From the IMG/VR virus record IMGVR_UViG_3300045988_090162: DNA of 64,000 nucleotides. The stretch is one strand, 5' to 3'. Positions 14,620-63,836 of this stretch are shown piece after piece (the stretch's first letter is position 1; each line of letters opens with the position of its first letter). The notes beneath the pieces were generated by a model that was not told the origin of the DNA, did no database searches, and was given only the letters and a program-made list of their open reading frames with translations. Source of the stretch: a virus. Both the position numbers and the translations under genes were made by a program.

Positions 14620-14626
14620 ATTTTCG

Positions 14627-14698
14627 TGCGCTAGTGGAGATTCGAACTCCAATCTCAAGAACGTCACCTTGCAATTTTGCCAGTTAAACTACTAACAC
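14627..14698 (-). tRNA. tRNA-like gene with atypical anticodon arm (possible pseudo-tRNA or non-canonical tRNA)
   Basis: Good acceptor (GTGTTAG/CTAGCGC with two G·U pairs), D-arm GTTT-AACTGGCA-AAAT and T-arm TGGAG-TTCGAAT-CTCCA; the anticodon region folds only as CAAGG/TCTTG around a 6-nt loop TGACGT (or a 4-bp stem with an 8-nt loop). Confidence 0.45.
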
Positions 14699-19093: not shown

Positions 19094-19162
19094 TTGGAGT
19101 GACAAGACTCGAACTTGCGACACGTTGAGTTAACAACATTCTACCAACTGAATTACACTCCA
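19094..19162 (-). tRNA. tRNA-like gene (69 nt) with atypical anticodon arm (6-nt loop TTAACT)
   Basis: acceptor TGGAGTG/CACTCCA, D-arm ATTC-AGTTGGTA-GAAT and T-arm GCAAG-TTCGAGT-CTTGT are fine; the anticodon region folds only as TGTTG/CAACG around TTAACT. Confidence 0.4.
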
Positions 19163-20348: not shown

Positions 20349-20437
20349 GTAATTTTTTAACTAGGCTGGCTCTTTCTGTGCTGCCCAGAAATTTTATGAT
20401 TCAGAGTCATATGTTCTACTGTTGAACTAAGAGCCAA

Positions 20438-20675: not shown

Positions 20676-21314
20676 TTATATATACACCCAATGAAAACCA
20701 TATGCCGTCTTTTCTTTATTTTCACAAACTTGCTTAATATGCCTTGAAATTCCTTGTGTTGATTTATTTGTAGTGTAGTTATTATCAAAAAGCCAAGCGG
20801 ATGCTTCGTGCAACGATTGAAAAATCTTGTCTTTTTCTATTAAACATACACTTTTAGAATATCGTTCTTTAGAAAGAACATTAGATTGCAGTATTTCTAC
20901 ATTGCATTGTTTACATGCGTACCTAACCGTATCTGCACAACAATGAAAATGTTTTACTACTTTTATCGTATCATGTGTTTCAGTATGCATATCAGCTATT
21001 TTTTGATAATCATAAAAAGGTTTTCCGTCTCCACCTTTTGTAGCATTATATCCATTACAGCCATATGTATTTAGCTTAAAAATCCAATATTCTTCCTGTT
21101 TTGCCGCATCTTCAACGGAGCATTTTTCTAATTGCTCAACATGAAAATGCTCAATGCCATATTTATTCATAGCAGAATACAGAGGACGTTTTTCACATCT
21201 TTCTTTTCTGCTATCTGAAATATGCTCTTTAAATCTTTTGCTGATTGACTTATTAGTTTTTCCAACATATTGTTTTCCGTTAACATCGTTGGTAATTACA
21301 TAAATATAAGACAT
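20676..21314 (-). CDS. GIY-YIG homing endonuclease (free-standing)
   Basis: N-terminal SYIYVITNDVNGKQYVGKT, RFKEH and YGIEHF (GIY-YIG core) with a C-terminal DNA-binding extension. Confidence 0.75.
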   Translation of the reverse strand: MSYIYVITNDVNGKQYVGKTNKSISKRFKEHISDSRKERCEKRPLYSAMNKYGIEHFHVEQLEKCSVEDAAKQEEYWIFKLNTYGCNGYNATKGGDGKPFYDYQKIADMHTETHDTIKVVKHFHCCADTVRYACKQCNVEILQSNVLSKERYSKSVCLIEKDKIFQSLHEASAWLFDNNYTTNKSTQGISRHIKQVCENKEKTAYGFHWVYI

Positions 21315-21582
21315 TTTATCACCAACTTAAATAATAAATGGAGCCAACTGACAGTGCTGCCCTGTCTGCTTCGCTTTACAAGAGCGATGTATTACTGTTA
21401 TACTAAGCTGGCTTTACCAAAAGAAAAATGAGCCTGCAATACTCTAGAAATCTTGCAGGCTCTAACACCACTATTACAATATAATAGTTGCGCAACAAAA
21501 ATTATAACTTTTTGCCCAGAACTTTTATTTTGTAACTAAAGTTATTATACCATATTAGTATAACGTCTGTCAAGAACTTTTT

Positions 21583-24731: not shown

Positions 24732-24812
24732 ATATCATCCTTTCATAATAACCTATTTTATATTATATAGCAAAAAAGGGCAATTGTCAAGAGACAATCA
24801 CCCTAAAAATCA

Positions 24813-25274: not shown

Positions 25275-26219
25275 TTAATTTTCAAACCAGTTACGCAACT
25301 CGATTACCGAAGGGCAAGTTCCTCGACCTTGCTCGCGGCACTCTTCCACGAACTCAGGAATTGCATCCATAAGACGAGGTTCAAATGCCAGCTTGGTCTT
25401 GATATTTTTGATAGTCTCAATATCACGTCCAGTCCAAACCTGCTGCAAAACTCCACGAGCCTTTTTCCAGTTCTTGTACCAAGGGGTCTTATATTTCACC
25501 ATGAATCCGTCTGCATCCTCGAAGACAAAGCCCTCGATGTATGCACGTGCGGACCACTTGTCAATGAAAGATTCAAACTCCTGCCAGTTAGCAATGACTT
25601 TGCTAAGAACCTTGCAATAGAATCCAAAATGTCCAGCTACATCAATAAGGGTATAGTACCCCGCATGGCTATAGTTGAAATCATTGTACACCAAGTCCAA
25701 AAGCACGAGGTGAGGATGCGAATACTCAACGATATGCGGGTCATGGATTGGGTCAATACACTCGAAGACAGCAGTGCAGTCATTCTTGCGCAGATATTCT
25801 GCGAATTCCTCCTGCTGTGCAGTGGTCAACGTCTTGTCAAGAACGTCACGGATATATCCTGCGAAATCTCCCTCATTCGTGCTCTTGGATGCGATGAACA
25901 GCTTACCGTCCTCGGTCGGGTCGGCAGAAATCATCGCAAGAAATCCGTTAGACTTGACATATGCGCACACAGGAAACACAAGGTTCTCGCGTAGGCTATC
26001 CATTTCAGTCTCAGGACGCTCTCCGATGTTGAAGAACTTGTTGTACGAACGTGCAACAACCTTATTATCTTTCACGAAAAGTCCGCGCGCCTTTACATTG
26101 ATGGAGTCCCATGCTTGGTTGAAAAAGCACTTGTTGGAGAAATTAAAAGACGAGATTCCATTTGCAAGATGCTTCTCGCGCACAAACGAGCTATTACGCA
26201 GCATATCGATTTCGTTCAT
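25275..26219 (-). CDS. RNA ligase, Rnl1/Trl1-like (KxNG nucleotidyltransferase)
   Basis: Start trimmed to MNEIDML (cassette promoter and CCAAGAGAGAGG leader at 26225-26290); motif I AYVKSNGFLAMIS resembles the Trl1/Rnl1 KANG lysine motif. Confidence 0.55.
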   Translation of the reverse strand: MNEIDMLRNSSFVREKHLANGISSFNFSNKCFFNQAWDSINVKARGLFVKDNKVVARSYNKFFNIGERPETEMDSLRENLVFPVCAYVKSNGFLAMISADPTEDGKLFIASKSTNEGDFAGYIRDVLDKTLTTAQQEEFAEYLRKNDCTAVFECIDPIHDPHIVEYSHPHLVLLDLVYNDFNYSHAGYYTLIDVAGHFGFYCKVLSKVIANWQEFESFIDKWSARAYIEGFVFEDADGFMVKYKTPWYKNWKKARGVLQQVWTGRDIETIKNIKTKLAFEPRLMDAIPEFVEECREQGRGTCPSVIELRNWFEN

Positions 26220-26290
26220 TTGTCTTCCTCTCTCTTGGTTTAATAATATTATATCATATATATAACTGTGCGGCAAATATTTTTTTCTAC

Positions 26291-26320
26291 AAAAAAAGGG
26301 AGAGGAACTAGTCCTCTCCC
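26291..26320 (-). terminator. rho-independent terminator
   Basis: minus strand GGGAGAGGACTAGTTCCTCTCCCTTTTTTTG. Confidence 0.65.
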
Positions 26321-26475
26321 TTAGTAGCATTTTCTTCAAATTCCATGCGCTCTAACTTTTCCTTACGTTTTGCTTTATAAGTATCGTCTTTGCGCTGACG
26401 AATTAGCTTTGCTTTGTGGGAAAACTTTTCAAAAGTATCATCATCGCTATACTCAAGTTCGTCCCAGTCACGAAT
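26308..26475 (-). CDS. small hypothetical protein (GTG start)
   Basis: AAAGGAtttattGTG start; acidic then basic tail. Confidence 0.3.
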   Translation of the reverse strand: MRDWDELEYSDDDTFEKFSHKAKLIRQRKDDTYKAKRKEKLERMEFEENATKGED

Positions 26476-26999: not shown

Positions 27000-27647
27000 T
27001 CACATACCTAACTTCTCTAATAAATATTGAGAATTAATTTTATTATAATCATAATATGGTATACGTATAAGATTGATATTATTATCAATGCAAAATTTCG
27101 TTTTTATAGAATCACGATATAATACTTCATTAAAGTTGTTTTCGTCATTCCATCCTGTAATTTTATAATGTTGAATACCATCATACTCGATACAAGTATT
27201 ATAGTCTGGCAAATAAAAATCAAAACGTAATGGACAAGACGTTTTAGGATTAATGCAACCTTCAAAAGTCTTTTGCGTGATATAAGGTATATTTGAATTA
27301 TTTAAGATTTCATTTATAAGGAATTCTCCCTTTGATTTTAAACATCCACACGATTTAGTATGTCCAGAAATTAAATGTCCTGTACCAACATATACAATAT
27401 TACCACAACTACATTGGCATTTCCATAATTTTGATTTATTTTTACTTCCTTTTTGACTTGCTTGGATAACTTTTGACCTTCCAAACATTTGTCCAACAAG
27501 ACTTCTACCAGCGCATCCACATGAAGTAGTGCTTAACGTCTTTAGCGCCGTTGCAGAAACGTCTACTTCCAAACCACAGTCGCATAGACAATGCCAATAA
27601 TTATTATTACTAGAATCTGTTTTATTTATTTTATATAAAGCAGCCAA
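27000..27647 (-). CDS. putative endonuclease with a duplicated N-terminal Cys-rich (zinc-finger-like) module
   Basis: Two copies of C.C.CG...V.....L.SG.TKSCGC, then a C-terminal IEYDGIQHY block typical of homing/restriction-like endonuclease folds. Confidence 0.4.
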   Translation of the reverse strand: MAALYKINKTDSSNNNYWHCLCDCGLEVDVSATALKTLSTTSCGCAGRSLVGQMFGRSKVIQASQKGSKNKSKLWKCQCSCGNIVYVGTGHLISGHTKSCGCLKSKGEFLINEILNNSNIPYITQKTFEGCINPKTSCPLRFDFYLPDYNTCIEYDGIQHYKITGWNDENNFNEVLYRDSIKTKFCIDNNINLIRIPYYDYNKINSQYLLEKLGM

Positions 27648-31482: not shown

Positions 31483-31516
31483 AGCAAAAAAGTCCCAAAG
31501 TCAATAGAAACTTTGG
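31483..31516 (-). terminator. rho-independent terminator
   Basis: minus strand AGTCCCAAAGTTTCTATTGACTTTGGGACTTTTTTG. Confidence 0.65.
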
Positions 31517-31528
31517 GACTAATTTATA

Positions 31529-32504: not shown

Positions 32505-33017
32505 CTAGATTGCTTTTAATTGGTCAATGATTGGCAAGATTTGCATATTGCTTGTGCCGATAGCGTAGTTTTGCTGCTCTGAAATAAATACAATCTTGTC
32601 AAACGGTTCATTGTCTTGTGGCGAAACTTTGCATCTATACATTTCTGCAATTTCCTTTTCACTTAGACGATGATATTTATCACGATTCTTATTGCGCGCA
32701 ACTGCTACATTTTTTGGAGTTTCAACCCAAACGCAAATAACTTCGCAGCCATTGTAATGTACATTGTTGAAAAACTTATCGCGTTGAGCGCGATTGATAT
32801 TGCGGTCATTCGCCACAACGTAACGATGTGATTTTAAGGCAATGTTAACTGCGTTATAAAAGCGCTTGTCAACTGTGTCGGCTTCTTCTGAATTATACAT
32901 GCGGCAATTATCTCTTTTGATTACCATACAGTCTTCATGTGAATCTTGAATTGCCTTTGCAAATACAGACTTACCGCTCTGCGTTACACCGCACATTAGA
33001 ATTAGCGTATGCTTCAT
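32505..33017 (-). CDS. P-loop NTPase (small kinase-like)
   Basis: MCGVTQSGKS Walker A at residues 8-17; 170 aa. Confidence 0.5.
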   Translation of the reverse strand: MKHTLILMCGVTQSGKSVFAKAIQDSHEDCMVIKRDNCRMYNSEEADTVDKRFYNAVNIALKSHRYVVANDRNINRAQRDKFFNNVHYNGCEVICVWVETPKNVAVARNKNRDKYHRLSEKEIAEMYRCKVSPQDNEPFDKIVFISEQQNYAIGTSNMQILPIIDQLKAI

Positions 33018-33023
33018 TTTTGC

Positions 33024-33404
33024 CTACCAATAGATAGTATACTTACTAATCGTAATATCAATTCGGTCAACGCCACGGAAATAAGTTACTTGATAATGTT
33101 CATTGCGTGTTACGTTATAGCCAAGAGACTCTTCAAGAGATGCAAATACTTCCTTCTGTGGATTGGTGAAGTCTTTCTCTGCGGCAGGAACGATGCTACC
33201 GCTCTGAACGATTTCTTCGTAGAAGTCAGATACATGCGGATAGAAGTCTACACTATTCTTACCATCATTGGCTGCTTTTTCAATATCTTTCATTACAATA
33301 TTGAAATAATCATATTTTTGAACTTGCTTGAACCGCTCTTCCCTTTTCTTCTTTAGAGCGACATAACGCATGTCACGTGCTTTTTCTGCTGTAATTGGTT
33401 CCAT
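33024..33404 (-). CDS. hypothetical protein
   Basis: 126-aa ORF; last gene of the leftward block. Confidence 0.5.
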   Translation of the reverse strand: MEPITAEKARDMRYVALKKKREERFKQVQKYDYFNIVMKDIEKAANDGKNSVDFYPHVSDFYEEIVQSGSIVPAAEKDFTNPQKEVFASLEESLGYNVTRNEHYQVTYFRGVDRIDITISKYTIYW

Positions 33405-33869
33405 GTAATATCCTTTCTTTTATGCGTTGGCTATATTATAAACCATAATCATATTGTATGTCAATACTTTTTAGAAAGAATTTTAATTAAAAATTTTTCT
33501 TGACAAAAGACTTGAAAATCATTATACTTTTAACTGGGTTGTTAAGGGGTTTACCCCTTAAATATATATAAAATAAATTATATTAGTTTATAATATAATT
33601 AAATTAGTTTATATATGTATATTGACTTTTATATATATAAGAGATATTATATAATTGTTTTATATATAAAAGATTTTATTATAAAGAAATTCCTGTGCTA
33701 CGCACAGTAATTTCTATTAAAAGAAGAGAAAAAGGATTAAAGAAAAATAAACTACTTTGCTATGCAAAGTAGTAAAAAGAAACAGTAAAAAGAGAAGAAA
33801 AAAAGTTTTTGCGTGCGGCCAAAAATTTGTGTATAATGTAATTACGAAAACAAGAGAAAGGATTTTATA
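33405..33869. promoter_or_regulatory. AT-rich strand-switch region with palindromes (divergent promoters; candidate origin)
   Basis: TTAAGGGGTTTACCCCTTAA palindrome at ~33545, perfect hairpins CTGTGCTACGCACAG and CTACTTTGCTATGCAAAGTAG, TATATA-rich repeats; TTGACA...TATACT at ~33500 and GTGTATAATG at ~33828. Confidence 0.5.
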
Positions 33870-34802
33870 ATGTCTCATTTCAATAAGTATGTGCATCTTG
33901 AGCGCTCGACTCGTGCAGAAGTTCAGAACTTTATCGGTCGTGACACAATTTTGCAGCCGAAGCTGGATGGTACGAATAGTTCTATCTGGGTAAACGATAA
34001 TGGAAATATTACTTGCGGTAGCCGTACTCGTGAGATTTCTATCGAGAAGGATAACGCTGGTTTCGCTGATTATATCACCAACACTGACGATACTGAGGTT
34101 AAGGCACTAAAGAATTGGTTGCTTGACCATCCTAATTATATCATTTACGGCGAGTGGCTTGGCGGTGTTGATGGCCGCAAGTTCACTGGTACTATCAAGA
34201 CTTATCTTGAAGGCGGATTCTTCATCTTTGATATTCTCAATACTAAGGATGGTGAGTATGTTGATTATGATGTATGGTGTCCAGTAGTTAGTAAGTTCTA
34301 TCATCGTTGCGTTCCTGTCATTTGCCGCATTAGCAACATGACTTGGGACGATGTGAACAAGCACGTTGACGAGTGTACTTACAATCTTCCAAAGGGGACT
34401 ATCGGTGAGGGCATCGTAATCAAGGCTTACCCTTGCGTGCGCGACCCATGGGGTAATGTTCAGATTGCCAAGATTGTTCGTGACGAGTGGCATCATTACA
34501 AGTCTAAGAAGAAGACTGTCTACACGGGCAATGACTCTTTGGAGAAGGAGTTTGTAGAGAAGTATTGCACTGAGGCTTTTGTCGAGAAGGAAGTCAATAA
34601 AGTTCTTATCGCTCTTGATATGGAGAAAATTGATTGCAAGAACGACAAGTTCTTCGGCATGGCTATCAATAAGGTTCTTGACGAACTTATGGAAGAGAAC
34701 TTCTGGGATTTCTTCAAGAAGAAGAAAGCTGCTTCTGTCAAACTGGCCGCAATCAAGGGTCTTACTCAAGCACGAGTACGCGAGTACATTCTTAACAACT
34801 AA
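33870..34802 (+). CDS. RNA ligase 2-like (Rnl2 family) nucleotidyltransferase
   Basis: FNKYVHLER...(22 aa)...KLDGTN (KxDG motif I) in the same arrangement as the T4 Rnl2 N-terminus (FKKYSSLEN...KIHGTN). Confidence 0.6.
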   Translation: MSHFNKYVHLERSTRAEVQNFIGRDTILQPKLDGTNSSIWVNDNGNITCGSRTREISIEKDNAGFADYITNTDDTEVKALKNWLLDHPNYIIYGEWLGGVDGRKFTGTIKTYLEGGFFIFDILNTKDGEYVDYDVWCPVVSKFYHRCVPVICRISNMTWDDVNKHVDECTYNLPKGTIGEGIVIKAYPCVRDPWGNVQIAKIVRDEWHHYKSKKKTVYTGNDSLEKEFVEKYCTEAFVEKEVNKVLIALDMEKIDCKNDKFFGMAINKVLDELMEENFWDFFKKKKAASVKLAAIKGLTQARVREYILNN

Positions 34803-50054: not shown

Positions 50055-50738
50055 TTGATTAGTAAATACTATGATTCTGTCGCGGCATTACAGGTAATTG
50101 GATGTTGTATGCGGAAACCCGAATACTTAGCAGCAGATGGACAATACTTCTTTTCAGAACACGACTTTTGCAATGATTTACATAAGGTAGTATTTGGTGC
50201 GTTATATAGTCTATATAACGCAGGTGTAACCGACCATCTTGCGCGAGAAATTGAAAATTATCTTAAAGATAAGCCAAAAGCATATGCAGTTTATAAAGCC
50301 AATAAAGGTCGAGAGTGGATGTTTGAAACTCATGCAAATGCCCACTTAGATGCTTTTGAGTATTATTATAATCGTCTAAAGAAAATGTCTCTACTTCGCG
50401 CATATGATGATGTTGGCGTAGATGTATCTGATATTTATGACCCTGATAATATCTTAGATTCTGCAAAGAAGCAAGCGCAAGACGAGTACCTTGACGGCAC
50501 GACATTAGAGCAATTAGCAGATGATGTAGAAGGTAAATTTTATTTTATCAGGGATTTATATGTAGACAATAACGATAATGACTCTGTTGCTATTGGTGAT
50601 AATGTCCAAAAGATTGTAGATGAATTAGCACAGCATCCTGCTCGTGGTTGGGCAATGTATGATTTATATGAAGATGCAATCGCTATGGGCGCACGACCTG
50701 GCCGCTTTTATCTAAGAAGTGCAGCAACAGGTGTCGGT
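50055..50738 (+). CDS. dnaB: DnaB-like replicative helicase, exon 1 (N-terminal domain to first half of Walker A)
   Basis: DnaB N-domain; ends ...GARPGRFYLRSAATGVG with the exon terminating in U (ggT) at 50738. Confidence 0.6.
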
Positions 50739-50969
50739 AGAATGATTTGCCGACAATAAACTGGGGAGAAAATCTGGAACCCTAAACCAAAAGGCAAGGG
50801 AATCAGAGGTGAAGGTTAATTTTAAATTAATCAGCCGCAACGCATAGCAGGTGAAAAGATATAATCCTGCCACGAGGCCCCAGCTTTCTTTACAAGAAAG
50901 AAAAGATATGCTGAACTTGCGGGAAACTGTAAGAGCTGTAGGATAAAAAGCCTACAGGGTAACAAATTG
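50739..50969 (+). mobile_element. candidate small ORF-less group I intron in the dnaB helicase gene
   Basis: P1: exon 3' UGUCGGU pairs with intron GCCGACA (50749-55) including a terminal U·G; intron ends in G (50969); internal hairpins CTTTCTTT-ACAA-GAAAGAAA and CTGTAGG-ataaaaag-CCTACAG; splicing yields AATGVGKSRTG (Walker A). Confidence 0.5.
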
Positions 50970-51848
50970 AAATCAAGAACTGGTGTTGCCGATGCTTGCT
51001 TCTTTTCATGTTCTGAATATTATTCAGATGAAGGTAAATGGGAGCGTTTATATAATCGAGTACCTACTTTATATATTTCGGTAGAATTAGACATTGAAGA
51101 GCTTACAACTATGGCGCTGGCTTTTATTGGTAATATTCCAGAAGACCATATCGTTGAAATGGATTTACTTACTTTTGACGAGGAAGAGAGATTAAAGAAA
51201 GCAGTACAGATTCTAGAAGAAGCGCCACTTCGTATGGAATATCTTCCTAACTATGGTATGAAAGATGTTGAGAATTGTATCAAACGCAATATGCGCAAAT
51301 ACAAATATCCACGAGTAGATGAACAAGGCAATACAGATTACCTAACTTTTCAATGTGTTGTCTTTGACTATCTAACTTCATCCATTAAGATGATTGAGGA
51401 AATCTCACATGGAACTGGAATGAAAGTACGCGAGGACCAAATTCTATTCCTTATGTCATCTAAACTTAAAGAAATAGCTGTCGAGAACAATGTCTTTCTT
51501 TTGTCAAGCACTCAAATTAATGGTAGTTATCGTCAAGAGAAAATTCTAGACCAGAACATGTTAGCTGGCGCAAAATCAATCGCAAACCGAATCGACTACG
51601 GTGAAATCATGGTCGATTGTACAGATGAAGATATTCAAGATATTGAAGGTGTTTTGGCGCAGCATCCCGGCATGTGTCCACCAAATGTAAAAAGAAGTGT
51701 ATATAAGAATCGACGAGGGAAATTCAATCGTGTTATTTGTTGGATGCGCGCGAATAAAGGCACTTGTCGATATAAGACTTTATTTGTAACTGACTTTTCT
51801 TTTAAACCAATAGACAAAGATGAAATCTTCCAAAAGAAGAAAGAATAG
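50970..51848 (+). CDS. dnaB: DnaB-like replicative helicase, exon 2 (RecA-like domain)
   Basis: KSRTG completes Walker A; H1a SVELD, Walker B VVFDYL, H3 SSTQINGS, H4 SYRQE. Confidence 0.6.
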   Translation, partial: KSRTGVADACFFSCSEYYSDEGKWERLYNRVPTLYISVELDIEELTTMALAFIGNIPEDHIVEMDLLTFDEEERLKKAVQILEEAPLRMEYLPNYGMKDVENCIKRNMRKYKYPRVDEQGNTDYLTFQCVVFDYLTSSIKMIEEISHGTGMKVREDQILFLMSSKLKEIAVENNVFLLSSTQINGSYRQEKILDQNMLAGAKSIANRIDYGEIMVDCTDEDIQDIEGVLAQHPGMCPPNVKRSVYKNRRGKFNRVICWMRANKGTCRYKTLFVTDFSFKPIDKDEIFQKKKE

Positions 51849-60888: not shown

Positions 60889-62088
60889 TTGACTAAATAT
60901 ATTACAAAGCGAAATGGAAATAAAGTAGAGTTCGATATTTCTAAGATTGAAAATGCAGTATTTCGTGCGGCATATGATGTTTCTGGTACTCTTGGATGGA
61001 CATGGACGTTTTGTCATGAGATTGCAAGAGACATTGCAAATGACTTTGAAAAAGCCGAGTATTATCATGACGGTATGACAGTAGAGGAGATTCAGGATGC
61101 TGTTGAAGAACTACTCATGGGCGATTTTCCGCATGTTGCAAAGTCATATATGATTTATCGTTATGAACACCAGATTGCACGCCAGAAACATAATGATGCT
61201 GAAATTCTTGATATGATTAAGAATGACCCAGAAAGTTACTGGGCAACAGAGAATAGCAATAAAAACGCTAAGCTCGTTACTGTGCAACGAGACTATCTTG
61301 CTGGCATTACAAGCACAGATATTGCTCGTAATTATATTTTCCCTAAGAAAGTAATTGAAGCTCACGACGCTGGTATTTGCCATCAACACGATATGGATTA
61401 TATGGCACAATCAACTCTTCATAACTGTGACCTTATCAATCTAGAAGACATGCTGCAAAATGGCACAGTCATTAACAATGTGCGTATCAACAAACCGCAT
61501 CGTCTTTTAACAGCTATGACAGTAACAACGCAAATTATGGCTAGTGTTGCGGCCAATTCTTATGGTGGAGAATCTATTACATTAACTCATTTAGCACCTT
61601 TCGTTCGTGATAGCTACAATATCTTTAAAAACAAATATAAAGATGAAGATATTTCAGATGAATTAAAAGAAAAGTTTGCATTGGCAGATTTAAAAAAAGA
61701 AATTGCTGATTCAGTGCAGACTTTTAATTATCAAATTTCAACGTTGTTTACATTAAATGGACAGGCGCCATTTTGCTCCCTGTTCATGTATATTGGCGAG
61801 ACAGAAGAATATAAGAAAGAATTAATTCTTCTTATTGAAGAGTTTTTAAAGCAACGAGAAAAAGGTATGCCAAATCGTCAAGGTGTATATGTTACGCAAG
61901 CATTTCCAAAGTTGTTATATGTTCTTGAAGAAGATAATTATAAACCCGGAACCAAATATTGGAATGTAACTAAAAAAGCAGTTGAATGTTCTGCTAAGCG
62001 CCTAACTCCTGATTATATTAGTGAAAAGGTAATGAAGCAAATCAAGGTAGATGCAAATGGTGAAGGCCATTGTTTTCCTTGCATGGGT
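60889..62088 (+). CDS. nrdD: anaerobic ribonucleoside-triphosphate reductase NrdD, exon 1
   Basis: N-terminal ATP-cone (ITKRNGNKVEFDISKIENAV); exon ends ...CFPCMG at U62088. Confidence 0.7.
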
Positions 62089-62801
62089 AAGCGTAAACTA
62101 TAGCCTATGTAAAATCTTTTGAATTCGGATAGGACTTAGATTTAAGTTGAGTCCGAACTAATATACATATTTAAAATCATAGAAAGGAGTTCTTTCTATG
62201 GAAAAATCAACACAATATAATAATATTTCTGTAACAGATGATGGTAAAGTATACAAAACAAAAAAGAATGGTAACAAAATAGAGCTTTGCCAATGGGTTG
62301 ACAATGTTGGGTATAAACAAGTAAAAAGTACAGATGATAAACAAGCTATTTATTTACGTGTGCATAGATTAGTCGCAGAAACTTTTATCCCAAATCCACA
62401 AAATTTACCGCAAGTTAATCATAAAGATGGAAACAAATTAAATAATGTGGTAGAAAATTTAGAGTGGTGTAACAACAAAGAAAATACTCAGCATGGATAT
62501 AATCACAATTTATATAAATCAACAGTTAGATGTCCAGTTAAAGCTACTAATAAAGAAAGTAAAATGGAATATATATTTCCAAGTATTCGTAAATGTGCAG
62601 AAGAACTAAAATTAAACAGAAAAACTATTACAGCTATTTTAAAGCATGAAAAAACAAATAATTATGATTATGATTTTGAATATGTATAATGTGTATCGAC
62701 TATTCCGAAAGGAAGTAGAGATAATAATTATCTCGAAGTAAGAAGACTATCCAATAGGATAGATGATATAGTCAGTGCGGCAGGTGACTGCCGACAACAT
62801 G
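62089..62801 (+). mobile_element. group I intron in nrdD carrying an HNH homing-endonuclease ORF
   Basis: 5' exon ends in U and the intron ends in G (62801); P1 guide GCCTATG (62103-09) pairs with exon CATGGGT; the exon junction restores CMG|CRSFLSPY. Confidence 0.7.
62198..62689 (+). CDS. HNH homing endonuclease (intron-encoded)
   Basis: [13 protein letters not shown]...[27 protein letters not shown] (HNH_3-type); RBS AAAGGAG. Confidence 0.75.
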
Positions 62802-63836
62802 TGTAGAAGTTTCCTGTCTCCATATATAGATGAAAATGGTAAACCCAAATATTATGGACGATTCAATTGCGGCGTTTCCAGCCTTAATCTTCCAGATACA
62901 GCTTTTGCCGCACAAGAAGAACTTAAATATGATACAGATAAATCACAAGAGCATCTTTTTGAAATCTTTTTCAAATTATTGGATGAACGAGCTGAAATCT
63001 GTCATGCCGGACTAAAAGTCCGCGTTGATAGACTTTCAAAAACAAAAGCTGGCGTAGCTCCAATCCTATGGGTAGATGGTGCTTTAGCTAGACTAGACCC
63101 AGAAGATACTCTAAACAAGTTAGTTCATAATGGATATGCTACAGTCTCGCTTGGATATAATGGCGGTAACGAAGCCATTAAAATTCTTATTGGAGAAGAC
63201 AATTTCACCAAGAATGGACAAGAACTGATGCTACGAATTCTCAAGTTCTTGACCAATAAGTGTGAAGAATGGAAGCAAGCAGAGAACGTTGGGTATTCAC
63301 TTTATGCGTCTCCAGCAGAGTCATTGTGTTACAAGTTTGCAACTAAGACTAAAGAACGTTATCCAAACCAGTTCAAGAAACTGTTTGGGAACAAAAAGTA
63401 TTTTGAAAATTCTTATCATATCCCAAGTTCTCAACCAATTGACCCCTTTTCTAAGATTGAACTTGAAGGCGAATTTCAAAAGTATTCAGTTGGTGGTTGC
63501 CTAAGCTATGTAGAGAGTTCTGACGTATCTAAAAATATATCCGTTCTGTATCCAATTTTAGAGTGTATTTATAATAATATTATGTATTGTGAAATCAATA
63601 CAAAAACTTCTTATTGCCATGTATGCGGCGAATCACAAACTATTGACGTTCACAAAGATGAAGAAGGAAATACATGGTGGGAATGCTCTAATTGTGGTAA
63701 TACAGACACAGATAAAATGGATGTTGCTGCACGTACTTGCGGATATGTTGGAGTCAACTTCTGGAACGATGGCAAGACTCAAGAAATTGCTTCTCGTTAT
63801 AAGCATATTGATGACCATGAGATTGGTGAAGAATGA
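62802..63836 (+). CDS. nrdD: anaerobic ribonucleoside-triphosphate reductase NrdD, exon 2
   Basis: CRSFLSPY active-site region, C-terminal zinc ribbon CHVCG...CSNCG, and glycyl-radical motif RTCGYVG. Confidence 0.7.
   Translation, partial: CRSFLSPYIDENGKPKYYGRFNCGVSSLNLPDTAFAAQEELKYDTDKSQEHLFEIFFKLLDERAEICHAGLKVRVDRLSKTKAGVAPILWVDGALARLDPEDTLNKLVHNGYATVSLGYNGGNEAIKILIGEDNFTKNGQELMLRILKFLTNKCEEWKQAENVGYSLYASPAESLCYKFATKTKERYPNQFKKLFGNKKYFENSYHIPSSQPIDPFSKIELEGEFQKYSVGGCLSYVESSDVSKNISVLYPILECIYNNIMYCEINTKTSYCHVCGESQTIDVHKDEEGNTWWECSNCGNTDTDKMDVAARTCGYVGVNFWNDGKTQEIASRYKHIDDHEIGEE

Follow-up and report, generated by a model that had tools for sequence, protein, structure and literature searches.

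Predicted promoters, an invariant palindromic block and shape-conserved hairpins in the divergent gap of an uncultured gut phage

Layout and predicted promoters of the divergent gap

The DNA analysed here (the window) is a stretch of 64 kb from IMG/VR virus record IMGVR_UViG_3300045988_090162 and belongs to the genome of a large (~140 kb), tRNA-carrying phage. Our subject is a 465-nucleotide (nt) gap in it, at positions 33405–33869, which is bounded by the start codons (ATG) of a leftward gene at 33404 and of a rightward gene at 33870. To its left is a gene for a 126-residue protein with no Pfam, PHROG or PDB match (33024–33404, − strand), and to its right an RNA ligase gene (33870–34802, + strand) that is the first of an RNA-repair and replication arm. 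The window shows no exception to this strand switch: all genes up to 33404 read leftward and all from 33870 on rightward, and with a codon model built from 20 confident genes every opposite-strand open reading frame (ORF; + strand left of the gap, − strand right of it) scored as non-coding. The divergence described in an earlier reading of the letters alone (the sequence-only reading) is thereby borne out. We compared the gap between two subfamilies of relatives, and the most informative result is the contrast between a block that stays constant in sequence and hairpins that change in sequence while staying paired.

The phage is uncultured and comes from the human gut, and its host is probably a Firmicute. 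Related contigs of 138–148 kb are present in IMG/VR and in ENA assemblies from many human-gut metagenome studies. Megablast found no DNA-level match to the region among GenBank phages, and tblastn of the proteins found distant relatives only, with identities of at most 29% for the topoisomerase and 38% to SPbeta YorL for the polymerase. The comparison set comprises ~35 family contigs whose RNA ligases are either 88–98% or 75% identical to that of the window, and these define the two subfamilies. An RNA-ligase profile search yielded no more distant syntenic relatives: identity falls from 75% to 35% or less, and the loci so found are not syntenic. Both subfamilies share one order of elements, namely a leftward promoter (P_L), a 35-nt A+T-rich spacer, a first rightward promoter (P_R1), the block AACTGGGTTGTTAAGGGGTTTACCCCTTAA, an A+T tract with TTAGTTTATA-type units, a second rightward promoter (P_R2), hairpin 1, a purine block, hairpin 2, another purine block, a third rightward promoter (P_R3) and a ribosome-binding site (RBS). 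The distances are shared too, with ~33 nt from P_R2 to hairpin 1, ~33 nt from there to hairpin 2 and ~35 nt from hairpin 2 to P_R3.

The four predicted promoters are of the sigma-70 type. P_L (33435–33464, − strand) matches the consensus at 12/12 positions (TTGACA, 18-nt spacer, TATAAT); its hexamers are kept among relatives while its spacer varies, and it is followed by the 5′ leader and RBS (AAAGGA on the − strand) of the 126-residue gene (33405–33434, − strand), conserved in both subfamilies. The A+T-rich spacer of 35 nt (33465–33499), partly conserved between subfamilies, separates its −35 box from the back-to-back −35 box of P_R1 (33500–33528, + strand; TTGACA, 17-nt spacer, TATACT, 11/12). 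P_R1 is conserved in both subfamilies, and its counterpart in L095, a contig of the 75% subfamily, reads TTGACA-17-TATAAT. P_R2 (33622–33650, + strand), recognised by hexamer match, has TTGACT, a 17-nt spacer and TATTAT (10/12), and L095 carries TTGACA-16-TATAAT at the same place relative to hairpin 1. The gene-proximal P_R3 (33809–33837, + strand; TTGCGT, 17-nt spacer, TATAAT) is conserved in alignment A1 and corresponds in L095 to TTGCAA with an extended −10 element, TGATATAAT; beyond it lie the RBS (AGAGAAAGGA) and ATG of the RNA ligase gene (33853–33872, + strand). All four have hexamers near TTGACA/TATAAT with spacers of 16–18 nt, the hexamers stay across the two subfamilies while spacers and flanks diverge, as looked for in sigma-70/sigma-A promoters, and each is directed at genes on its own strand. 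The promoters facing both ways that had been claimed are thus recovered as one leftward and three rightward ones. In several relatives (L011, L015, L016 and L018; also L031, L032, L045 and L053) an extra gene of ~1 kb, absent from the window and with the look of a mobile insertion, stands between P_R3 and the RNA ligase gene.

The gap had also been proposed as a regulatory region and, more specifically, as the master region of an early/middle switch. The first part is sustained by the conserved hexamers and the operator-like block, but the second is not, as similar promoters continue along the arms. By the same criteria we find further near-consensus promoters on both arms, 36 co-oriented with the genes versus 7 anti-oriented in the window, often paired with strong G+C-rich terminators. 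Because of these 36 co-oriented sites both arms are apparently read by the host polymerase from many entry points, and the gap promoters would merely be the first of two long series. Two − strand terminator-promoter cassettes (31491–31520 and 24777–24804) place the −35 box of the following promoter inside the terminator hairpin before it, in its loop or stem (TTGACT at 31504, TTGACA at 24790).

A constant block and changing hairpins

The block AACTGGGTTGTTAAGGGGTTTACCCCTTAA (33532–33561) covers 30 nt from about −3 to +27 of P_R1 and is identical at 30/30 positions between subfamilies whose gaps are otherwise 60% identical overall and whose neighbouring 126-residue gene is 59% identical at the DNA level. 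Within it, at 33542–33561 (about +7 to +27 of P_R1), lies the perfect palindrome TTAAGGGGTTTACCCCTTAA, with 8-nt arms and a 4-nt centre. The block is present as a single copy per contig, its half-site TTAAGGGG has no second occurrence in the window, and the palindromic 20-mer has no match elsewhere in the window even at 3 mismatches, save its own reverse-strand image. We consider the block a likely, putative protein-binding site of the operator type.

The exact 20-mer TTAAGGGGTTTACCCCTTAA also occurs upstream of genes in unrelated Clostridia elements; the contigs noted for this and for similar palindromes are L072, L073 and L076 (Hominicoprocola, Oscillibacter, Dysosmobacter), L050, L052 and L057, and L059. 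One Clostridia copy lies between a small gene and a gene that, read by eye, is Toprim-like; the bacterial L059 shares 27 nt with the phage block, upstream of a gene that looks by eye to be of the leuA type; 18-nt iterons containing CTGGGTTG adjoin the copy in L057; and some unrelated contigs have several TTAAGGG...CCCTTAA-type palindromes side by side. These occurrences may reflect a shared recognition motif or convergence. The resemblance is suggestive and the elements are not homologous, and neither the Clostridia palindromes nor the iterons of L057 were retained as relatives of the gap.

Two hairpins lie further downstream. Hairpin 1 (33685–33715, 31 nt) pairs 7 + 6 bp around a C/T mismatch with a 3-nt loop and has the core CTGTGCTACGCACAG at 33693–33707; hairpin 2, (A)CTACTTTGCTATGCAAAGTAG(T) at 33751–33773, has a perfect 10-bp stem and a 3-nt loop. 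Folded as RNA they reach −14.1 and −12.3 kcal/mol, respectively, with z = −7.0 and z = −5.4 against shuffled controls. The palindrome and the two perfect hairpins of the sequence-only reading are all perfect, lie where it had placed them and exceed chance: in first-order Markov simulations of the gap, with a hairpin defined as a perfect stem of at least 6 bp and a loop of 3–5 nt, at least three such hairpins in 465 nt had P = 0.0005, with a mean of 0.11 expected.

In hairpin 2, 99% of the cells compared are paired and 6/10 pairs have changed on both sides, a result attained in 0/500 shuffles and neared by no slid register. The stem of hairpin 1 is wholly replaced, with pairing kept, in the 75% subfamily (L019/L020), and in L004/L017 one of its G-C pairs has become A-T; here pairs were counted by script, MAFFT having failed to hold the diverged hairpin in register. 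The loops vary among relatives (TAC, TTC, TAT, GTA, TTGC). As the block is constant and the hairpins have changed but remain paired, we read the former as a target of sequence-specific recognition and the latter as under structural selection, suggesting that the hairpins may act as shapes in single-stranded nucleic acid, on either strand. In L007, L013, L030, L041, L049 and L066, which include members of both subfamilies, an unchanged stem of hairpin 2 carries its 3-nt loop in inverted form (GTA for TAC); a flip of this kind is expected from strand switching at a palindrome. The related loops that had been noted for the two hairpins do share a TGCTAYGCA core, but not to any significant degree, since 39/100 shuffles give at least two matches and the loops vary, and the core was dropped as a motif.

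Neither hairpin has the form of a rho-independent terminator. Hairpin 2 lacks a U-run on the + strand; its − strand resembles a terminator, but to the right of it there is no leftward promoter. On the 3′ side of hairpin 1 there is only UAAUUUCUAUU in the window and an A-run in L095, where 5′ U-runs and 3′ A-runs flank the hairpin on both strands. With Rfam 15 no match was obtained in the gap up to E = 10, the best score being 21 bits (E = 4.8) against a 52-bit threshold, and in the whole window Rfam found tRNAs only.

These features bear on whether short non-coding RNAs, one or several, are encoded in the gap, that is, transcripts from P_R1 or P_R2 ending at hairpin 1 or 2 (~180 nt; 50–115 nt). 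Such an RNA could be regulatory, or possibly a partner of the Ro60/TROVE-domain protein encoded 3 kb downstream (36779–38209; Pfam E = 7e-14), and it would account for two conserved promoters without an ORF, for structure-conserved hairpins downstream of them and for the invariance of the first 30 nt of the putative P_R1 transcript. We nonetheless hold it improbable, given the Rfam result, the hypervariable body of the putative P_R1 RNA in both length and sequence, and the lack of a conserved U-tract at hairpin 1 and of any on the + strand at hairpin 2. Bacterial TROVE proteins act with Y RNAs; no Y-RNA-like gene was found in the window by Rfam at gathering thresholds. The TROVE gene clusters with two RNA ligases, a PNK-like kinase, a nucleotidyltransferase and many tRNAs (33870–34802, 32505–33017, 25275–26339, 38311–39162), and the set looks like an RNA-repair toolkit.

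Hairpin promoters of the phage N4 type, used in single-stranded form, were likewise considered and rejected. Those promoters have a stem of 5–7 bp and a 3-nt loop, with bases conserved in both, and are read by a giant virion RNA polymerase; the stem of hairpin 2 has 10 bp, the loops differ among relatives, and there is no giant polymerase in the 64-kb window.

Hairpin 2 sits between two purine-rich arms on the + strand, AAAAGAAGAGAAAAAGGATTAAAGAAAAA (33719–33747) and AAAAAGAAACAGTAAAAAGAGAAGAAAA (33774–33801), each the mirror image of the other at 26/29 positions, a score attained in 0/2000 shuffles. In the 75% subfamily (L095) the stem-proximal part of the arms is AAAAGAAT in place of AAAGAAAAA, and mirroring is kept at 26/28. 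Because of an indel between the arms, mirror repeats were scanned with exact arms; the exact mirror core of 15 nt is the longest in the window, where random sequence reaches 13. The arms are separated by 26–29 nt, including the 23 nt of hairpin 2, and contain a few pyrimidines; the flanks of the hairpin as a whole (33717–33808) are 85% purine, and purine-rich leaders before start codons are common in this genome. We regard the symmetry as real, with H-DNA or a purine clamp as a possibility, and hold back on its meaning because of the 13 nt reached by random sequence and the frequency of purine-rich leaders.

The A+T tract, contig ends and the question of an origin

A hypervariable A+T tract (33562–33690) follows the block. 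Its 129 nt comprise 59 A, 60 T, 9 G and a sole C, which sits in the −35 box of P_R2, and at 7.8% G+C it is the lowest-G+C 130 nt of the window (next lowest 16%), so that the TATATA-rich tracts claimed earlier turn out to be the window minimum; the tract of L095 has 6.2% G+C. Nowhere else in the window would the DNA unwind as readily. The window has two TTAGTTTATA units in it (33583–33592 and 33604–33613), 21 nt apart; relatives have 2–5 copies at irregular spacings of 10–23 nt, and the 75% subfamily keeps TTAGTTT(T/A)A in both orientations. An unrelated phage contig of 172 kb (L153) has a divergent gap of its own (2010–2398; 6.9% G+C) with at least four TTTGATATTTA-type repeats and a suspicious G13T10 run that is probably an assembly artefact.

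Assemblies of the family often stop in this tract. True contig ends lie inside it in 6/21 family contigs found via the RNA ligase gene, and for three of the six the other end does so as well; three independent ENA assemblies end 4–13 nt past the palindrome. In all, ends in tract homologues were noted for L004, L009, L011, L012, L014, L017, L026, L037, L046, L058, L062 and L065, where the chance of an end falling in the tract is ~0.1% per end. So strong a concentration would be expected if the packaged genome physically ended in the gap, or if a pac or terminal-repeat boundary lay there. Yet there is no single end position: the ends, from the assemblies of several studies, scatter over ~150 nt, at 17, 35, 44, 72, 80 and 107 nt before hairpin 1 and at 4, 12, 13, 72 and 105 nt after the palindrome. 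One of them bears TATAAGAGACAG, left over from a Nextera adapter; in contig 098471 the two ends share an overlap of ~95 nt, but with mismatches, which fits strain variants or poor coverage and not a terminal repeat; and about two thirds of the family contigs read straight through the tract. Neither a fixed end nor identical repeats at both ends were found, and extreme A+T content with variable short repeats suffices to break assemblies. The clustering therefore looks like assembly failure in an A+T-extreme, repeat- and strain-variable tract, which explains it better than physical termini do, and we judge termini here very improbable indeed. Because family assemblies break in the tract, contigs of this family that start or end there should not be taken to mark genome termini.

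The sequence-only reading had put forward the gap as a candidate bidirectional replication origin. That idea finds no independent support. The cumulative GC skew of the window does have its minimum at the gap, but is fully confounded with gene direction: the skew holds no independent information on an origin because gene direction switches at the same point, and replication skew cannot be separated from transcription skew through counter-oriented genes, since all such ORFs in the window are non-coding shadows. The skew shows no inflection at an iteron locus at 2494–2805, described below, and for this reason seems to reflect transcription. No cluster of DnaA boxes lies at the gap, and no Rep-, DnaA- or O-like family is encoded within 10 kb of it, its neighbours being the 126-residue protein and the RNA ligase. 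Of the features of an iteron origin, the gap thus has the A+T-rich unwinding element and lacks a recognisable adjacent initiator gene.

A transcription-activated, lytic-type origin is a different matter and deserves to be weighed. Here P_R1 and P_R2 would fire into the A+T tract as the unwinding element, an initiator would sit on the block or the TTAGTTTATA units or both, and the hairpins and purine-rich transcript would stabilise the open state or a priming RNA-DNA hybrid; the iteron locus could then be a second origin of the plasmid or prophage type, or a partition site. Well-known comparisons are T7 phi1.1A/B, ColE1 RNA II and P1 oriL. Several observations fit: the window's lowest-G+C tract, equally extreme in the other subfamily; a short-repeat motif conserved across subfamilies; strong promoters without a gene of their own aimed at the tract; a unique invariant site; the skew minimum; and a place at the start of the replication arm (topoisomerase II, ligase, helicase, primase, RecJ and an SPbeta-YorL-like polymerase). 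Known origins (lambda, SPP1, T7, ColE1-type) combine such parts. The lambda ori joins iterons, an A+T-rich region and transcriptional activation, and ColE1 is primed through an R-loop (PMC5043065); in T7 origins the promoter is an essential part (PMC8373140). In SPP1, however, A+T-rich islands mark not only origins but also intergenic regions with a purely transcriptional role (PMC6316719), and plain promoter regions are typically A+T-rich too. The confounded skew, flat at the iteron locus, the two repeat units of the window with their irregular number and spacing among relatives, the lack of an initiator gene nearby or of a DnaA-box cluster, and a far more canonical iteron array with a co-evolving protein elsewhere all speak against an origin in the gap, which we consider unlikely though by no means negligible.

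That array lies 31 kb from the gap, in an intergenic stretch of 312 nt (2494–2805) directly upstream of a gene for a 214-residue predicted winged-helix protein (1849–2493, − strand; low-confidence model). It contains a G+C-rich hairpin (2561–2580), five 11-nt repeats ATAACAACTAT that are 82% A+T (2582–2641) and five iterons of 22 nt with the core CACGTTTTGTCCG at exact 22-nt spacing (2644–2753). Five copies at this spacing are found in the window and in seven relatives (8/8 genomes). All share the invariant half CGGACAAA; the variable half switches in all copies together, being AACGTG in some genomes and TTGAGGAT or TCAGGGAT in L156 and L157, and is mixed in L158. The 214-residue protein varies in step: it is 84–89% conserved outside an iteron-type-specific segment, and 15/15 residues specific to the second iteron type fall within alignment columns 172–207, which in the low-confidence model correspond to the recognition helix and wing of a winged helix predicted at the C-terminus. 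The 203-residue protein encoded upstream shows no iteron-type residue pattern and has a sub-threshold Rep3_N match.

We take the iterons and the 214-residue protein as a candidate signature of an initiator-iteron pair or of a partition site with its binding protein, and by sequence the array is the best candidate, stronger than the gap, for an origin (or partition site). The label "Rep protein" is not established, because the AlphaFold models of the two iteron-flanking proteins are weak (pLDDT 51 and 55), Foldseek returned generic winged-helix matches only (E > 0.03) and an exhaustive HMMER search found no homologs outside the family. An origin mapped elsewhere, which the sequence-only reading had named among the grounds against the gap, is thus nearly at hand, as a predicted and not a mapped one. 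The search for an origin is thereby redirected from the gap to this array, and the paired iteron and protein variants make a natural specificity-swap series.

A more elaborate possibility joins the two loci, with the gap as a second, lytic-type origin beside a plasmid-like iteron replicon at 2494–2805, a two-origin design like that of P1 oriR/oriL. In it, P_R1/P_R2 transcripts would invade the A+T tract, hairpin 2 and its mirror arms would form a triplex or purine clamp locking the priming hybrid, and the invariant palindrome would be a switch licensing P_R1. We know of no natural, conserved "hairpin plus mirror purine arms" element described in such a priming role, and taken whole, with triplex priming and the palindrome switch, the scheme is speculative and improbable.

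The two arms differ in content. After the RNA ligase the right arm encodes the TROVE/Ro60 protein, the nucleotidyltransferase, topoisomerase II and DNA ligase, and further on a Sak4-like protein, a DnaB-like helicase, a primase, RecJ and the polymerase of 1177 residues (38% to SPbeta YorL). The left arm encodes the PNK-like kinase, an SPFH protein, a SpoU methylase, PhoH, a second RNA ligase, homing endonucleases and at least 10 tRNAs. ARAGORN called a tRNA with a four-base anticodon (gacg) at 14626–14698, and three weak tRNA-like Rfam matches (42–46 bits; 19094–19162, 20366–20436 and 21342–21412) were not called by it. The anaerobic ribonucleotide reductase NrdD is spread over two ORFs (60889–62103 and 62775–63836) with an ORF of 163 residues between them (62198–62689), and the DnaB-like helicase also over two (50055–50759 and 50967–51848); introns, inteins or mobile insertions could account for these splits. 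Homing endonuclease genes lie elsewhere in the window at 20676–21314, 27000–27647 and 45030–45914. At its left end, positions 1–600 score as non-coding in every frame, irregular ~24-nt repeats (GAAATGAAAATCG-like) occupy 1597–1685, and after them a rightward promoter-like site (1719–1747) has no rightward gene downstream.

A probable control hub and its relation to known systems

Taking the evidence together, we favour the view that the gap is a conserved early control hub of the phage, made up of promoters, an operator-like site, an A+T repeat tract and a structured, purine-rich leader, and we think this probably correct. Host RNA polymerase would start leftward at P_L and rightward at the tandem P_R1, P_R2 and P_R3, ahead of the RNA-repair and replication arm. 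A dimeric protein would most likely bind the 30-nt block over the P_R1 start and so gate that promoter, and the phased TTAGTTTATA repeats around and upstream of P_R2 may tune that promoter as bent, UP-element-type or factor-binding DNA. Transcripts started at P_R1 and P_R2 would then cross the purine-rich leader and its two hairpins, which appear to be selected for shape and not sequence and probably serve in leader structure, partial attenuation or RNA stability; P_R3 and the first gene would come after them. That the promoters are active, that a protein binds the block and what the hairpins do are here read from sequence patterns.

Several points weigh against this picture. Protein family searches of the window genes gave no candidate binder of the block. 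The nearest gene begins 340 nt beyond P_R1 and 220 nt beyond P_R2, and a promoter firing into a tract of 7.8% G+C is the look of transcription-activated origins too. One-sided hairpin changes give G-U pairs on the + strand in 3 cases and on the − strand in 2, and a plain promoter region needs neither repeat units nor mirror-symmetric purine arms. The mirror-arm hairpin alone might prove unusual, the rest of the gap belonging to a known class. For a family that recurs in human-gut metagenomes and has no cultured relative, its likely early transcription starts would be useful for annotation and for experiments, and the handles that the gap offers are four predicted promoters, a unique site of the operator type and two structured elements of the leader.

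Among known systems, iteron origins (lambda ori, SPP1 oriL/oriR, plasmid oriV; PMC5043065, PMC6316719) resemble the gap in having repeats beside an A+T-rich stretch with transcription through it. They have 4–7 repeats of 17–22 bp in helical phase and an adjacent initiator gene, whereas the gap has 2–5 irregular units of ten nt, two of them in the window; the locus at 2494–2805, with five at 22 nt, fits this family much better. T7 phi1.1A/1.1B and ColE1 RNA II (PMC8373140, PMC5043065) also have a promoter directed into an A+T-rich region, and a purine-rich transcript from the gap could hybridise stably with the DNA; the gap differs in that its promoters are of the host sigma-70 type, not phage-polymerase ones, and its leader is that of an ordinary operon.

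The purine arms recall H-DNA homopurine mirror repeats and polypurine reverse-Hoogsteen hairpins, being two mirror-image purine arms of 28–29 nt whose symmetry is kept in the second subfamily. An H-DNA-forming repeat is a homopurine/homopyrimidine mirror repeat with a short spacer; the arms of the gap differ in their 26–29-nt spacer, with a hairpin in it, and in their pyrimidine interruptions.

At the left end of T7, promoters A1, A2 and A3 stand ahead of gene 0.3 with a structured leader. The gap differs from this cluster in its back-to-back leftward promoter, its position at the junction of divergent arms, the palindrome over its first promoter, hairpins (10–13 bp) too short for typical RNase III sites, and the recurrence of similar promoters along both arms. 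It is like the T7 cluster in that several predicted strong host-polymerase promoters stand in tandem, within a few hundred bases, before the first early gene, and in that an untranslated leader with structure comes after them.

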